Shown here: positions 1 through 8,058 of the stretch, one piece after another
Numbering within the stretch: position 1 is the stretch's first letter
How the letters are laid out: every line of letters begins with the position of its first letter
Virus record (IMG/VR): IMGVR_UViG_2585427776_000015
Span: 1-8,058 of that record
Origin: a virus
Lineage: Duplodnaviria; Heunggongvirae; Uroviricota; Caudoviricetes
Length of the DNA stretch: 8,058 nucleotides
Strand: one strand, 5' to 3'
Translations under genes and position numbers: made by a program
Notes under the pieces: generated by a model
Database searches by the model: none
What the model saw: the letters and a program-made list of their open reading frames with translations, nothing else
Told to the model about the DNA's origin: nothing

Positions 1-544
1 ATGGAAGTCAACAAAAAGCAGCTGGCTGACATTTTCGGTGCGAGTATCCGTACCATTCAGAACTGGCAGGAACAGGGAATGCCCGTTCTGCGAGGCGGTG
101 GCAAGGGTAATGAGGTGCTTTATGACTCTGCCGCCGTTATAAAATGGTATGCCGAAAGGGATGCTGAAATTGAGAACGAAAAGCTGCGCCGGGAGGTTGA
201 AGAACTGCGGCAGTCCAGCGAGGCAGATCTCCAGCCAGGGACTATTGAGTACGAACGCCATCGACTTACGCGTGCGCAGGCCGACGCACAGGAACTGAAG
301 AATGCCAGAGACTCCGCTGAAGTGGTGGAAACCGCATTCTGTACTTTCGTGTTGTCGCGGATCGCAGGTGAAATTGCCAGTATTCTCGACGGGATCCCCC
401 TGTCGGTGCAGCGGCGTTTTCCGGAACTGGAAAACCGACATGTTGATTTCCTGAAACGGGATATCATCAAAGCCATGAACAAAGCAGCCGCGCTGGATGA
501 ACTGATACCTTACCGAAATCGGTACGGATACCGCGAAAGAGCAG

Positions 545-552
<8 letters not shown>
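1..552 (+). CDS. nu1: Phage terminase small subunit, lambda gpNu1-like; last ~10 residues diverge (deletion junction)
   Basis: 183-aa ORF; first ~170 aa (MEVNKKQLADIFGASIRTIQNWQEQGMPV...KAMNKAAALDELIP) match lambda Nu1 as I recall it, including the N-terminal HTH region. The tail (YRNRYGYRERADL) is not Nu1-like. ATG is at window position 1. Confidence 0.8.
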
Positions 553-1748
<1,196 letters not shown>

Positions 1749-1759
1749 TGAGCCGCTGA

Positions 1760-2227
1760 TGCTTGAACCCGCCTATTGCACCACCAGATATTCCGGCAGG
1801 CTTCGTGGCTGTTTTCAACAGTGATGAGGCATCGTGGCATCTCGTTGAAGACCATCGGGGTAAAACGGTTTATGACGTGGCTTCCGGCGACGCGTTATTT
1901 ATTTCTGAACTCGGTCCGTTACCGGAAAATGTTACCTGGTTATCCCCGGAAGGGGAGTTTCAGAAGTGGAACGGCACAGCCTGGGTGAAGGATACGGAAG
2001 CAGAAAAACTGTTCCGGATCCGGGAGGCGGAAGAAACAAAAAACAGCCTGATGCAGGTAGCCAGTGAGCATATTGCGCCGCTTCAGGATGCTGCAGATCT
2101 GGAAATCGCAACGGAGGAAGAAACCTCGTTGCTTGAAGCCTGGAAGAAGTATCGGGTGTTGCTGAATCGTGTTGATACATCAACTGCACCTGATATTGAG
2201 TGGCCCGCAATCCCTGTTATGGAATAA
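1760..2227 (+). pseudogene. tfa: Tail fiber assembly protein (Tfa) C-terminal fragment with no credible native start
   Basis: Translation ...[88 protein letters not shown]...[11 protein letters not shown] matches the C-terminal ~150 aa of lambda Tfa from memory. The frame opens just after a stop at 1757-1759, and the only in-frame start is a TTG at 1763 with no RBS. Confidence 0.75.
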
Positions 2228-2587
2228 TAGTTTTGTGATATGCCGCAGAAACGTTATATGCAATAACGTGCTGCGGTTGGCTGATGTACTTTCGAGAGTG
2301 TATTGAATAATTTCCAACCGTCATTAATTTTATTTATTTTTTGTATGAGAGGATTTGAACCTCCGAGCCTCGACACCTTATGACAACGCGATATTGCCTT
2401 GATGACCGCCATGTGCCAAAATAACCAATTGATAAATAAGTTGATTTTAATTGGTTGGAAGCAAGTCAGGTCAAATTCAGCATTCCGCTCTCTGTATCGG
2501 ATAGTTAAATTTTTCTATAACTGATAGTAATATGTTAAAACTCACACAGATAAATTATCATTGCTCAACAAGTATAATGGAGTTCCC
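2228..2587 (+). promoter_or_regulatory. Non-coding, AT-rich leader and putative promoter region of the McrB-like operon; contains two palindromes
   Basis: 360 bp with no ORF. Interrupted palindrome at 2243-2276 (ccgcagaaacgttat / ataacgtgctgcgg). Inverted repeat AACCAATT (2423-2430) / AATTGGTT (2449-2456) around two direct TTGAT. GGAG at 2579-2582 sits 5 nt before GTG 2588. I cannot place the -35/-10 boxes reliably. Confidence 0.3.
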
Positions 2588-4543
2588 GTGGATACAGCAG
2601 AACATGATGGCAAGTTTGCTTGGGCTAGTTTTTATGAGGCTTTTGCCAACGCGTTACTGACTTGGCGAAATCGTAGAGATGAATTAGTCAAAGGTATTCA
2701 TCTAATTGCCCCGGGTGTGGAAGGAATGTCCCATCTGCAGGACAAATCTATTATGGGAGAGATCTTTCCCTTAAAAGACATTTGTCCGTTTACTACTATG
2801 GGCTTGTTCAATCGTAACTTGACCGACAGCAATCGCAAAATTATTGCTGCCAAGCTAGCGAATTTGTTGGGCGTGAACGAACCGATTCCTGACTCCTTTG
2901 CCGGAATCCCTCTGTTGAATAACCAAAAATCTTGGTTCTTTGGTTATGAAAAGTCACGCGACCCTAATGACATTGAATGCTTGTGGGAAATGTTCTCACA
3001 GGCAATGACCTTTGCGGATAACCAGAATACTAACTCTGCAGACTTCACTGCCGCATATGACATCGCTTCTACAGTAATGAATGTCGGTTGGAATCTCACC
3101 ATGGGGTTGTACTGGACCCGTCCTTGGTTCTACCCCACTTTAGATAGCCAGTCGCAGTATTACATTCAGACAGTGTTAAACATTAAGATCATTAAAAACG
3201 GGGCAAAAGGTCGCTGTAGTGGACAAAGTTACCTGAGTCTTATGCGGGCGCTGAACGAGGTCTTTACCCAACCAAACTATCCGGTTCATTCTTTCCCAGA
3301 ACTTTCCTTATCAGCGTGGAATACAGATCTTAGCCAGTCTAAAGATGAGGTGGCAAATAGAACGTGGAAAGCCTCTTTACTGAATAAAATTAAGGCGTTA
3401 TGCCTGAAAAAAAATGGCCCTTATTTCACTGCTTCGGAGTTGGAAGAAAACTACTTGGACGTTTTCAAGGTAGAGCATCCTGAGAGCAAAACTGTTACAA
3501 GCTCAATCTACTTTTATCTACAGAAACTATGCAATGATGATGAGTTAAAGTCCCTCGAGTCCGGAAATTATGAATACCTGAATTTTGAGAAAAACGAATC
3601 CCAGACGATAACTGAGGAAACTGTCGAAGAGAGTGCGCTGTCGCCAAAACTCACCCACGTTCCTTATGACATCAGTCATCTGGTGCAGGATGGCTGTTTC
3701 TTGGAAGAGGCTAAGATCCAACTCACACTTCAGCGCCTGATCGACAAGAAAAACCTGATATTACAAGGACCACCCGGAACTGGAAAAACTTGGTTAGCGC
3801 GACGTCTGGCGTACTGCTTGATGGGAGAAAAAGCACCTGAGCGTATTAGCGCGGTGCAATTTCACCCGAACCTCTCTTACGAAGACTTTATTCGCGGCTG
3901 GCGTCCAGGTAAAGAAGGGCAATTGACGCTAATTGATGGACCTTTTGTAAATGCAATCAAAACTGCAGTCAATAATCCTACCTCGAAATATGTGGTGATA
4001 ATTGAAGAGATTAATCGTGGCAATCCGGCGCAAATCTTCGGTGAAACACTCACGTTGATGGAAGCAGATAAACGCACGCCGACTGAGGCATTATCTCTTT
4101 CCTATCCTAAAAATGCTGATGAAAAAATATACATTCCTGAGAATCTATATATCATCGGTACGATGAATATTGCAGACCGCTCACTCGCACTACTTGACCT
4201 AGCGCTGCGCCGTCGTTTCGCGTTTATCGATCTAAAGCCAGCTTTTAATGACGCGTGGAGAAACTGGGTAAATTATAATTACGCAATTGATTTTGACATG
4301 TTAGCATTCATCAAATCTCGACTGACGGTATTAAACGATATGCTGGCAAAAGATGTTACCTTAGGACCACAGTTTTGTATCGGTCACAGCTATGTCACCC
4401 CAGCTATCGGCCAAAAAATCAACGATGCCCAGGCTTGGTATGAACAAGTCGTTGATACAGAGATCTGCCCTTTGCTCGCCGAATATTGGTTCGATGCTCC
4501 AAATAAAGTCGATGAAGCCAGAAAAGTGTTATTAGCAAAATGA
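2588..4543 (+). CDS. McrB-family AAA+ GTPase with an N-terminal ~380-390 aa region of unknown family (Type IV restriction motor / specificity subunit homolog)
   Basis: C-terminal ~270 aa carry Walker A GPPGTGKT (3766-3789), Walker B-like VVIIEEINR (3993-4019), the McrB signature MNxxDRS (MNIADRS, 4163-4183) and RRRF, and align throughout with E. coli McrB from memory (ILQGPPGVGKTFVARRLAY..., YIIGLMNTADRSLAVVDYALRRRF). The N-terminal region shows no similarity I can recognise. The open frame begins at TTG 2561 (no RBS); GTG 2588 is preferred because of the GGAG 5 nt upstream; the first in-frame ATG is about codon 56. Confidence 0.85.
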   Translation: MDTAEHDGKFAWASFYEAFANALLTWRNRRDELVKGIHLIAPGVEGMSHLQDKSIMGEIFPLKDICPFTTMGLFNRNLTDSNRKIIAAKLANLLGVNEPIPDSFAGIPLLNNQKSWFFGYEKSRDPNDIECLWEMFSQAMTFADNQNTNSADFTAAYDIASTVMNVGWNLTMGLYWTRPWFYPTLDSQSQYYIQTVLNIKIIKNGAKGRCSGQSYLSLMRALNEVFTQPNYPVHSFPELSLSAWNTDLSQSKDEVANRTWKASLLNKIKALCLKKNGPYFTASELEENYLDVFKVEHPESKTVTSSIYFYLQKLCNDDELKSLESGNYEYLNFEKNESQTITEETVEESALSPKLTHVPYDISHLVQDGCFLEEAKIQLTLQRLIDKKNLILQGPPGTGKTWLARRLAYCLMGEKAPERISAVQFHPNLSYEDFIRGWRPGKEGQLTLIDGPFVNAIKTAVNNPTSKYVVIIEEINRGNPAQIFGETLTLMEADKRTPTEALSLSYPKNADEKIYIPENLYIIGTMNIADRSLALLDLALRRRFAFIDLKPAFNDAWRNWVNYNYAIDFDMLAFIKSRLTVLNDMLAKDVTLGPQFCIGHSYVTPAIGQKINDAQAWYEQVVDTEICPLLAEYWFDAPNKVDEARKVLLAK

Positions 4544-5661
4544 CGACAATAACCGGGAGTGAGCAACATACAGCATCACGTATTCCCATGCGAAATATCT
4601 GGATGCTGATGCTGTACGCTTCAGATCTGTTTCGCCAGTTAGGGCGCAATCAGATCGCAGTAGAAGATAACCCAGCAGAAATCCCCGACCTGGTGGCGAC
4701 AATCCTCCTTCATGAGATTACGCTGCGCCGACGTCGCAATTTAAATATGGGATACCAAACTTGTCATGCGGCCCTGAACCGGGTGAGAGGGCGCATTGAC
4801 ATACTGTATACTGCCAGTCATCAACTGCTGGAACGGGGACAGGTTGCCTGCCATTTTCAAGACATAACCCTCAACACCCCCCGAAATCGCTATGTTCGCT
4901 GTGCGTTAGAACGTCTGGCCTCAATCATAGTGAAACCGTCTTTGGCGGCAGATTGCCATTTTATGGCAATATCACTTCGCCGTGAGGGGATAAATGGAGG
5001 ATATCCTGCCCCCCACGAATTACCCTCAGTGTGGCGTTTTGGACGCCATGATGCCGCAGATAAACCGATGGTCGATGCCGCACGATTAGCTTTTGAACTG
5101 CTGATGCCGACCGAAGATCAAGGCCAATATCTTTTACCTGCGCCCTCAAATAACCTTTACTGGATGAGAAGACTATTTGAAAAAGGTATCGCTGGCTTAT
5201 ATCGTGTACACCTTGACAAAACAACTTGGCAGGTCTCTGCAGGGAAAGAGCTGAAATGGGCGTTGAGCGATCAAAGTGCAGGTAGTGCAGAGATTTTCCC
5301 GACAATGAAGTCAGACATTATTCTGGAACACAAGACTGCCCAGCGGCGTATTATTATCGATACCAAATTTAATTCGATTCTGACAAAGGGTTGGCATCGG
5401 GAGCAATCACTACGTAATGGCTATATTTATCAGCTATATACCTACCTTAGAACACAGGAGAACAAGACGGATCCGCTTTCGCTCAATGCCGCTGGTCTTC
5501 TACTTCATCCAGCTGTTGGCTATATGCTTAATGAGTATGTTGTCACTCAGGGACATAAGATCCATTTTGCTACAGTAGATATGACGGTAGATGCTAAAGC
5601 AATTAAAAAACAATTGCTGGCAATAGCCCATGATTGTGCAGGAGTCGCGGTTGATGACTAA
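4540..5661 (+). CDS. McrC-family PD-(D/E)xK endonuclease subunit (373 aa), translationally coupled to the McrB-like gene
   Basis: Start ATG overlaps the upstream stop (ATGA at 4540-4543). N-terminus IPMRNIWMLMLYAS resembles E. coli McrC IPVRNIYYMLTYAW. Nuclease core SDIILEHK...RRIIIDTKFNS (D259 at 5314-5316; D274-T-K276 at 5359-5367) parallels McrC ETDITI...ILIVDAKYY. The following NGYIYQLYTYL resembles McrC QNLYQLMNYL. Confidence 0.85.
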   Translation: MTTITGSEQHTASRIPMRNIWMLMLYASDLFRQLGRNQIAVEDNPAEIPDLVATILLHEITLRRRRNLNMGYQTCHAALNRVRGRIDILYTASHQLLERGQVACHFQDITLNTPRNRYVRCALERLASIIVKPSLAADCHFMAISLRREGINGGYPAPHELPSVWRFGRHDAADKPMVDAARLAFELLMPTEDQGQYLLPAPSNNLYWMRRLFEKGIAGLYRVHLDKTTWQVSAGKELKWALSDQSAGSAEIFPTMKSDIILEHKTAQRRIIIDTKFNSILTKGWHREQSLRNGYIYQLYTYLRTQENKTDPLSLNAAGLLLHPAVGYMLNEYVVTQGHKIHFATVDMTVDAKAIKKQLLAIAHDCAGVAVDD

Positions 5662-6017
5662 CCATCCTATAGGGCACTGGCTGTAATATAATCAATAGTT
5701 TCAATTAAGTAGCTGTTATCCGTGCTTAGTCATCATATGACGCACCACGGTCTAATTTTCCTGCTCATACATTGATATATCCTTGTCGTGCCCGGAAAGT
5801 CGCAGTCCACTATGAGGTATACCGATTGCCAGCACCAAAAGCTTCTTTGTGATTATTATATCGGGGAATGCCTATTTTTTTAGTGACAATATCAGATAGC
5901 AATTAATAAGCGGTGCCGGTAATGGATGTTATGTTTAATGTATAGACACAGCCATCATAAACTAAACGTCTGTTGTTCGCTCATAACCGACATTTATCTC
6001 AGTTATGGAGGATAATT

Positions 6018-6098
6018 ATGTATGCAGATAATGGGGCAGACAGTCGTGGAGTAAACAAGGTTTTGCACTGCTTGGCGGCATCGTTATCTTATTTTTAA
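6018..6098 (+). CDS. Hypothetical 26-aa small protein (MYADNGADSRGVNKVLHCLAASLSYF), speculative
   Basis: Consensus Shine-Dalgarno GGAGG (6007-6011) sits 6 nt upstream of the ATG, inside otherwise ORF-free AT-rich DNA. The C-terminal half is hydrophobic. There is no homology evidence; the call rests on the RBS only. Confidence 0.2.
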   Translation: MYADNGADSRGVNKVLHCLAASLSYF

Positions 6099-6141
6099 TT
6101 ATGTGCCTCTTAACATAAGTTGGGACAAAACAGAGACACAT

Positions 6142-6173
6142 AAGGTCTCACAAAGGTCTGCAAGGCCTCACAT
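6142..6173. repeat. Three tandem imperfect ~10-bp direct repeats (AAGGTCTCACA / AAGGTCTGCA / AGGCCTCACA)
   Basis: Read directly from the sequence at 6142-6152, 6153-6162 and 6163-6172. Spacing is one helical turn, as expected for an iterated protein-binding site. Confidence 0.5.
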
Positions 6174-6361
6174 GTATTGAGATGTTAATAAAATGTAGAC
6201 TTGTAATTTGGATATAAATGGTAGAGAAAACCTTTCCCCAAAATAAAAACGAACGTCAATGAAATCAAACGGTTGAATAAAGTTAATTTTGGCTAATAAA
6301 AAGACAATAAAATAATTTTTATCATTAAATATCAATGACTTGAATTCATGGTTTTTATATA

Positions 6362-6526
6362 CTGCTGCGCCATATGGGTTGGACTGAAGCGGCTGACCTG
6401 ATTGTTAAAGGTATGGAAGGCGCAATCAATGCCAAGACCGTAACTTATGACTTCGAACGTCTGATGGAAGGCGCTAAGCTGCTGAAATGTTCAGAGTTTG
6501 GTGAAGCGATCATCGAAAACATGTAA
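6362..6526 (+). pseudogene. icdC: icd 3' fragment: last 54 codons of isocitrate dehydrogenase plus stop, the duplicated attachment region (icdC-like)
   Basis: In-frame translation [54 protein letters not shown] matches the Icd C-terminus from memory. Homology begins abruptly at 6362, after AT-rich non-icd DNA. 165 bp, no start codon and no upstream icd sequence. Confidence 0.85.
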
Positions 6527-6549
6527 TCTCTCCATGTGTTAAATATTGA

Positions 6550-6581
6550 AACGGGCGTATAACACGCCCGTTGTTTTATTT
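6550..6581 (+). terminator. Rho-independent terminator downstream of the icd 3' fragment
   Basis: 9-bp GC-rich stem (6550-6558 / 6564-6572, aacgggcgt..acgcccgtt) with a 5-nt loop, followed by a T-rich run (gttttattta), 24 nt after the icd stop. Confidence 0.6.
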
Positions 6582-6628
6582 ATGTGGATATTATTAATAG
6601 CATATCGAGCATATTTATATGAAGCCCA

Positions 6629-6952
6629 TTACTTGAGCCCATATGGGCATATTTTTATAATGCAACTATTATGTAAACATTTATTTGTTATTTTGCTTTC
6701 TCCTGGAGGACACTCTTGACTGCTTTTGAGTAAACTCCATAAATCCTTGTTGAATGGTGCGATGTGATAAATAGTAATAGGATATTCTTTATCCTTAAGG
6801 ATAATACCAGACTTAACCGGTGTAAATATACTGCCAGGAGGGAGAAATATAGTAGATTGATACCAGATGATCATTTTCATATTACCCCATATGGCTGAAA
6901 AAGATATACCACATGTAGGTTGAATTACCGTGTCAATTACTATCCACTTCAT
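6629..6952 (-). CDS. iraM: Anti-adaptor protein IraM-like (RssB inhibitor that stabilises RpoS), 107 aa
   Basis: 107-aa [46 protein letters not shown]... matches IraM (YcgW) in length and N-terminus as I recall it. Position and orientation, immediately after icdC and on the opposite strand, match the E. coli K-12 order icdC-iraM-ycgX. AT-rich gene with a long AT-rich upstream region. Confidence 0.7.
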
Positions 6953-7029
6953 TTGTTATGTCTTATCCCACGGTATTTAATATGGTTCATTAGGATGTTT
7001 ATTTCTTGATTTTGCATATGAGTATATTA

Positions 7030-7039
7030 CCCCCCCCCC
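7030..7039. repeat. C10 homopolymer followed by an A7 run, in the iraM-like upstream region
   Basis: Read directly: attaCCCCCCCCCCtcAAAAAAAt. It lies 78-87 bp upstream of the iraM-like start codon on the opposite strand. Confidence 0.9.
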
Positions 7040-7415
7040 TCAAAAAAATAAATTAATTAAAATGATGGCTTATATAAAATAAAATTTAAAGCAAGGAATC
7101 TCAATGGATGTTAAACAAAATGAGATTTTGTGAAAGCAATAAATTATTGACTTCGTTTTAGATTTGTTTAGCTATAATGTTATACATTCAAATGACTGAA
7201 CATCCTGTAATTAAAACATAGCCTTTATGCTACTTTGTGCCAATTTGCTAAACATTATGGTTGCCTTTTTATATAACGATAATAATGAATATAAGCATGA
7301 CATGAGAATAAGGTTTCAATTTTTGAGTTATATAGGAATGATTTAACCTGTTCCTGGCTAAAATACATATAACCGGATGATGACTAAACCAAAATACATG
7401 TGCGTTAAGTATTGA

Positions 7416-7447
7416 AACGGACGTGTGGCACGGCCGTTGTTTTTATA
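7416..7447 (+). terminator. Second, degenerate copy of the icd-terminator element: hairpin plus T-run with no + strand gene upstream
   Basis: Stem 7416-7425 / 7429-7438 (aacggacgtg..cacggccgtt, one mismatch) followed by gtttttata. The flanks (catgtgcgttaagtattgaaacgg...) are homologous to 6536-6585 (catgtgttaaatattgaaacgg...). Confidence 0.35.
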
Positions 7448-7653
7448 AATATGTTAACCGTTATAAAATAACGTATCAAAAGTCAAGTGATCACATTTCA
7501 AATATCAAGTTGATAGTATTAGTCTGGTGATTATTTATGGGTGACAATAAAAAGACAGTATTAATCATCCATAGAGATAGTCTCTGCACTTTTATTTCCA
7601 TTATGCTAATGCCTTACTGAATTATGAAGCATTTCTTAAGTATCCAACTTTAG

Positions 7654-8058
7654 CTAGATTAATGGTTTATTATTTTCTACATCTTCAATATATAAAAGCG
7701 TATTATCAATGGCGTAGTAACTGCGTTTGTTATGATTAACATCAGTAACCCACCGGAAAACGCCCGCGCCTGCCAGTGTTGAACAGTATTCCCGAAATGT
7801 AGATTTTCCGCAAATATGAAGCAATGCGGCCTCTTTTATTTTAGCAGGGTTCTTGGTCGTACTAACTTTTAACAGGTTCCTGGTTCCTCTTAATAACAAA
7901 ACCGTATCATCGTGAGTAATAATTCTGATGTTATCCGTAGCCAGATAATAAATGTAATGTGCAATACGGTGATGTTTTAATTCTGAATAAAACCAGGAGA
8001 AGTTTTGCTCTTTTCTCACTTGCTCAAACATCTTTTGAAAAACAACGACCTGATCCAT
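7654..8058 (-). CDS. ycgX: DUF1398-family protein, YcgX-like (134 aa); start codon at the window edge
   Basis: 134-aa ORF MDQVVVFQKMFEQVRKEQNFSWFYSELKHHRIAHYIYYLATDN...AGAGVFRWVTDV... resembles the E. coli YcgX/YbcV/YdfO (DUF1398) family as I recall it. The position next to iraM matches the K-12 order. ATG occupies 8056-8058, so the true start may lie beyond the window. Confidence 0.5.
   Translation of the reverse strand: MDQVVVFQKMFEQVRKEQNFSWFYSELKHHRIAHYIYYLATDNIRIITHDDTVLLLRGTRNLLKVSTTKNPAKIKEAALLHICGKSTFREYCSTLAGAGVFRWVTDVNHNKRSYYAIDNTLLYIEDVENNKPLI

Follow-up and report, generated by a model that had tools for sequence, protein, structure and literature searches.

A displaced icd 3' end at the very probable right attachment site of a defective phage-21-type prophage

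The DNA analysed here, a stretch of 8,058 nucleotides referred to as the window, carries the end of the isocitrate dehydrogenase gene icd between phage-like genes and bacterial backbone. This raises the question of which element left the fragment there, whether it is a host or a phage copy, and at which base phage DNA gives way to host DNA. That e14 and phage 21 insert into icd and themselves supply a replacement for its 3' end has been described since 1989–1997, and the feature is ordinary and already known. The att sites of phage 21 and e14 were reportedly treated by Hill in 1989 and Wang in 1997. Comparison of the sequence with phage, prophage and unoccupied host genomes makes it almost certain that window 6108–6579 is the attR of a defective lambdoid prophage that sits in icd and uses the phage 21 integration system. 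The features on which this reading draws are listed below.

2588–5661, plus strand: McrB-like GTPase and McrC, prophage cargo (Pfam AAA_5 and McrBC)
6108–6362, plus strand: P arm of a phage-21-type attP, 255 bp, the phage-derived left half of the proposed attR (colinear blastn with phage 21)
6232–6243, plus strand: putative arm-type Int-binding dodecamer CTTTCCCCAAAA (consensus YYTTCCCCAAAA), the single exact consensus match in the window
6363–6372, plus strand: TGCTGCGCCA, the shortest perfect attL/attR repeat and an upper bound on the crossover (from strain 504239, which has an attR 100% identical to that of the window)
6363–6526, plus strand: displaced host icd 3' end (icd nt 1088–1251, ...LRHMGW...IIENM plus stop), equivalent to the K-12 pseudogene icdC
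6363–6579, plus strand: full stretch duplicated by the 21-type phage, an imperfect direct repeat with attL (alignments diverge after ...GTTTTAT)
6550–6582, plus strand: native icd intrinsic terminator, a 9-bp G+C-rich stem (6550–6572) then a T run (terminator scan)
6629–6952, minus strand: iraM, the first backbone gene right of attR (ORF list; annotated iraM in K-12 and relatives)

The icd fragment, its limits and its allele

Nucleotides 1088–1251 of K-12 icd align with window 6363–6526 at 92.7% identity (E 7e-67), a match of 164 nt that includes the stop codon. Translation of 6350–6526 places this stop at 6524–6526, as an initial annotation of the window had stated. The Pfam Iso_dh profile is matched at positions 301–348 of 348, its last 48 positions, and short-word blastn and tblastn over the whole window found no other significant Icd similarity. 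Given the alignment E-value, the sole Icd match and the terminal position of the Pfam match, the fragment is real, beyond chance and restricted to the extreme 3' end of the gene. PGAP calls the same stretch in relatives a partial isocitrate dehydrogenase lacking the N-terminus. The initial annotation had described a 165-bp icd duplicate; the duplication stands but the length does not, as 164 nt lie within icd and the stretch shared with the phage is 217 bp.

The junction had been placed at 6361/6362, and its sharpness is borne out while its position moves one base to the right. Aligned with K-12 icd, with icdC and with both prophage ends of a close relative, the window shows uninterrupted icd identity from T6363 (TGCTGCGCCA...). 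Host DNA therefore begins at 6363 and the junction is 6362/6363. Bases 6361–6362 are AC where icd has GA. Because base 6362 is C rather than the A of icd, the first L of the peptide LLRHMGW, at whose position Icd has M, belongs to the phage arm and not to Icd. Two independent comparisons agree on this base. With window 6108–6662 as the query, the unoccupied-site genomes H111 and H112, in which icd is followed by annotated iraM and there is a single match place, align at 100% from query position 256 (window 6363). On a relative's attL side, the alignment of free phage genomes starts at query position 85 (L003 3234), which pairs with the same window base. The PGAP pseudogene start at 6359 is a protein-level extension. 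Short-word blastn and tblastn found no icd homology upstream of 6363, in keeping with the earlier description of non-icd DNA before the junction. That description also called this DNA AT-rich; base composition shows no step and both sides are AT-rich, so it was dropped as a marker and homology marks the junction instead.

A sigma-70-like motif (ATGACT-17-TATACT) at 6335–6363 on the plus strand straddles this junction. Eleven nt further downstream is ATG 6374, the start of a 50-aa in-frame icd' ORF without a Shine-Dalgarno sequence. A weak promoter-like site could in principle drive a 50-aa Icd C-terminal peptide. However, promoter-consensus matches number seven in the region against a mean of 6.5 in shuffled sequence, so the match is not evidence of expression. 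Rfam was searched for sRNAs in the neighbourhood of the junction, C0293/svsR of icd prophages being one example, and gave nothing at 5600–6700.

The allele of the fragment indicates where it came from. Window 6363–6579 is identical to K-12 icdC and its flank at 217 of 217 positions, and window 6360–8058 is colinear with K-12 icdC-iraM-ymgK-ymgL-ycgX at 99.8% identity. The identity over the fragment is thus 100% to icdC against 92.7% to functional icd, two of the comparisons that the initial annotation had proposed. Relative to functional K-12 icd there are 12 coding SNPs, of which two are non-synonymous (both D to E), and the two D/E differences noted earlier are visible in the alignment. The published difference between icdA and icd+, the e14-lysogen and the restored allele, consists of the same 12 SNPs with two D to E changes (PMC4759930; PMC13626634). 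The same 3' end is found at 100% in the intact icd of unoccupied strains (H107; also H111 and H112), and again in the e14-free K-12 derivative H98, where the match consists of two joined pieces. As the window is identical to icdC and to icd of unoccupied strains, and as its difference from K-12 icd is the published one, these alignments identify the window allele (E...E) as the native chromosomal one and the K-12 'reference' terminus (D...D) as e14-borne. The fragment had been viewed as an alternative icd 3' allele. It does differ from K-12, but it is the native form, and it is the K-12 terminus that e14 supplied.

The fragment might instead be a phage-borne copy of icd, for example one derived from attP in a second tandem prophage. 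Phage 21 carries its P arm and icd-like segment in the same order, and the layout of the window up to 6579 is attP-like. However, the 217 positions that match the host allele without exception differ from phage copies at 11–19 positions, and the sequence beyond 6579 leads to iraM, not to arm sites and int. A phage-borne origin is hence barely credible. The fragment is the host allele and continues into iraM, which accords with the earlier proposal that a displaced host copy lies at the far end of the prophage.

The duplicated stretch extends past the gene itself. Window 6363–6579 matches the attL of a relative (L003 3234–3450) at 94.9% over 217 bp, and homology between phage and host ends abruptly at 6579/6580. 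The 53 nt beyond the stop codon hold the icd terminator (fold energy −15.3 kcal/mol, z −3.7), so the phage replaces the terminator together with the coding tail. Phage-borne copies retain an equivalent hairpin, and at this point a terminator is annotated in the phage 21 record. The e14 copy of this 3' UTR has 17 mismatches in 53 nt versus 2–6 for 21-type copies, and its hairpin still forms. In strain 504239 the loop of the phage-borne terminator is reverse-complemented relative to that of the host (GCGTGTTATACGC vs. GCGTATAACACGC; L005 5229–5269 vs. window 6545–6585). The stem is unchanged and both loop versions fold equally well, and the difference looks like a hairpin-loop inversion. To the right, iraM is missing beside icd' in some occupied strains, which have a 126-nt hypothetical ORF instead (L007 7503–7628, L008 7489–7614, L009 7248–7373). 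Variation therefore extends to the backbone beside attR.

The phage arm and the opposite prophage end

The left flank of the fragment points to the type of element. Window 6108–6579 matches phage 21 (OL657228, L004 4746–5217) at 90.7% overall, with the P arm alone (6108–6362 vs. L004 4746–4999) at ~92% by eye. In phage 21 this arm sits directly upstream of an annotated 'ICDH-like' pseudogene. Sequence comparison found no e14 or icd similarity in window 6108–6362.

The arm also contains the putative arm-type site at 6232–6243. An identical dodecamer occurs at the same P-arm position in phage 21 (L004 4870) and in a relative (L003 27130), and three more copies lie beside int in phage 21 and in the L003 attL. 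The phage 21 record annotates the three int-side dodecamers as attP subsites with the consensus YYTTCCCCAAAA. The single dodecamer lies 131 bp left of the core and the other three ~230–266 bp right of it in phage 21. Wang et al. in 1997 (J Bacteriol 179:5705) reportedly showed that phage 21 needs an unusually large attP of ~370–420 bp, bounded by the outer dodecamers, and the observed spacing fits this size. Degenerate arm-type sites with two mismatches were also considered. Eight were found where 3.1 were expected, a marginal excess given that 2 of 200 shuffles gave as many, and only one of them, overlapping the exact site, falls within the att region. The exact site alone is credible. A terminator-like hairpin on the minus strand (6149–6133) lies just inside the P arm. 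The ~450 bp of AT-rich DNA that separate the mcrC stop from the P-arm homology (5662–6107) contain no ORF longer than 41 aa and have no match in phage 21.

The left end of the prophage lies outside the 8-kb window, and the best complete genome of the collection covers 95% of the window in three pieces, with none matching it in full, so icd, int and attL of the source genome are deduced from relatives. Three of these (74-2, 504239 and B-1109) match the attR at 100% over 6363–6579 and the cargo at ~99–99.7%. Their gene order is rluE, icd, 21-type int and xis, lambdoid early, replication and lysis genes, packaging remnants, the McrBC-like pair, icd' and iraM. The B-1109 stretch begins inside int, and the adjacency of icd and int rests on 74-2 and 504239, where icd and icd' have the same orientation ~22–24 kb apart. 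A full-length icd beside a 21-type integrase in these two strains upholds the earlier proposal that the phage integrates into icd and brings a replacement 3' end.

A right end of an e14-family element, as found in K-12, would account for part of these data. From the icd' fragment rightwards the sequence is identical to K-12 icdC and flank, and e14 uses the same attB. Against this, no e14 similarity exists left of 6363, where the phage 21 P arm matches instead, and base 6362 is the C of phage 21 rather than the A of e14. The integration genes of the relatives point the same way. On the attL side, a relative matches phage 21 int-xis-attP at 98.6% DNA identity, with the match beginning at the base equivalent to window 6363, whereas the relatives' integrase is 60% identical to IntE at the protein level. 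Since the left flank matches the phage 21 P arm without e14 similarity, the element is of the phage 21 type and not e14, to which we assign next to no probability.

Comparison of the two prophage ends narrows the site of exchange. attL and attR differ at 11–15 of 217 positions. The perfect repeat between them is 67 bp in 74-2, whereas in 504239 it is 10 bp (TGCTGCGCCA), followed by 15 scattered mismatches. The e14 pair of K-12 shares the same 10 bp plus the preceding A, an 11-bp repeat that has been published for e14 (PMC4759930). The initial annotation had left the core repeat to be found, and strain 504239 supplies it. As the perfect repeat in this strain is 10 bp, strand exchange would be confined to 6363–6372, if no later changes have occurred. 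The mismatches and the short repeat are as expected of a copy brought by the phage with exchange at its 5' edge.

A mechanism consistent with these ends can be proposed. The attP would consist, in order, of the P arm with one arm-type site, the core, the 217-bp imitation of the icd end with its terminator, three arm-type sites and int. This would be a lambda-type tyrosine-recombinase site with a P' arm stretched by ~220 bp to hold the tail of the target gene. The tyrosine integrase would exchange strands between attP and icd within TGCTGCGCCA (icd nt 1088–1097). After integration, host icd would read at attL into the phage-borne 3' end and terminator, and the displaced host tail would be left at attR. 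With icd functional at attL, the cell would thus keep its isocitrate dehydrogenase. Excision would be expected to regenerate full-length Icd, as does an in-silico join of icd nt 1–1087 of 74-2 to window 6363–6526, which gives a full-length Icd ORF. Unoccupied strains (H107) carry this sequence at 100% identity. That Int-mediated strand exchange is the cause we infer from published work on phage 21 and e14.

It could also be that the attR is an orphan, left by a prophage that was rearranged or lost its left part, with no attL partner at icd and no means of ever being rejoined. The morphogenesis genes are reduced to fragments, the relatives carry different deletions and one has an IS3 element inside int. 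However, int and xis are at the left end in all three relatives, with icd beside int in two. Furthermore, 21-type attL and attR are found in similar numbers of complete E. coli genomes, with attL in 1680 of 5426 and attR (P arm plus icd') in 1461 of 5426. An orphan attR is consequently very improbable, if slightly less so than the other alternatives, and an attR with its partner at icd is strongly preferred. By these counts, ~27–31% of the 5,426 genomes carry a 21-type element at icd. The attR together with its particular left neighbourhood (window 5800–7000) is found in 303 of 5426. A synthetic attB query gave 5386 genomes at 80% coverage, a count without discriminating power, since 86% of the query is already accounted for by attL, and single-piece matches were used instead. 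In 504239, int is split by the IS3-family insertion (L001 709–1404 / L005 5324–7779). Since this element interrupts int, the 504239 copy is probably locked in place, though its attR is identical to that of the window.

Cargo, decay and relation to known elements

Just inside attR the prophage carries a McrBC-like module. McrC meets the NCBIfam equivalog model at 355 bits against a cut-off of 338. The McrB-like protein matches E. coli McrB (PDB 6ut6) at E 1e-75 over the C-terminal GTPase domain only (residues 369–652), and neither Pfam nor NCBIfam has a family that matches its first ~370 residues. PADLOC gave no McrC match, and its only assignments for the McrB-like protein were generic models of AAA proteins or restriction enzymes. 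None of the 50,697 phage records contains the module.

The module lies in a slot, bounded by tfa (or pin) and the P arm, whose content differs among icd-integrating elements (window 2365–6107; L002 15847–16680; L009 4284–6173; L004 1–3083; L007; L008). It holds the McrBC-like pair here, mcrA in K-12 e14, a DUF262 protein in an e14-like element of strain A42, and sitABCD in phage 21, AREA_486 and GN04171. The DUF262 protein is presumably GmrSD-like. Modification-dependent restriction would thus be the apparent role of three of the four cargo types, for DUF262 only presumably so. It is conceivable, though rather unlikely, that the slot is a recurrent landing place for type IV restriction and that the N-terminal domain of the McrB-like protein recognises a modification other than the EcoKMcrBC target.

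The morphogenesis region of the prophage (window 1–2227) survives in fragments. These are nu1 (1–552), a C-terminal piece of the terminase large subunit (680–898), gpW (895–1101) and the first 216 aa of the portal (1098–1748), after which a tail fibre assembly gene (1763–2227) follows almost at once. The deletions found here in relatives are different ones, which indicates independent decay. The only Rfam match, to IS009 (RF02111) at 1986–2184 on the plus strand, is strong, with 220.9 bits against a gathering threshold of 117, and lies wholly inside the tail fibre assembly (tfa) ORF.

Among known elements, phage 21 (M61865, OL657228) is the closest parallel, sharing the P arm at ~92%, the dodecamer, the start of icd homology and the 217-bp extent with its terminator. 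Relatives of the window carry int and xis near-identical to those of phage 21. In contrast to phage 21, the window prophage is a decayed remnant, its tfa-to-P-arm slot holds the McrBC-like module in place of sitABCD, and its icd segment is the host allele of an attR rather than that of the phage. The K-12 e14 attR, icdC (b4519), has the same host fragment, right flank and attB position. It follows the same logic, in which the phage supplies the 3' end and the displaced copy lies beside iraM (PMC4759930; PMC13626634). However, e14 has an unrelated left flank, an integrase 60% identical and a far more diverged copy of the 3' UTR. The NC-SV prophage of E. coli NC101, which is likened to the window prophage by description only, differs in being described as intact.

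The NCBI annotation pipeline already flags the fragment as a partial isocitrate dehydrogenase pseudogene. For annotation it is useful to have the right-hand prophage limit at a single base step, 6362/6363, and the integration system identified as phage-21-type. Where the icd 3' allele differs between strains, the last 164 nt reflect prophage history and not evolution of the enzyme. The origin of this allele bears on icd-based typing and on how 'parallel synonymous mutations' in evolution experiments are read (PMC13626634).
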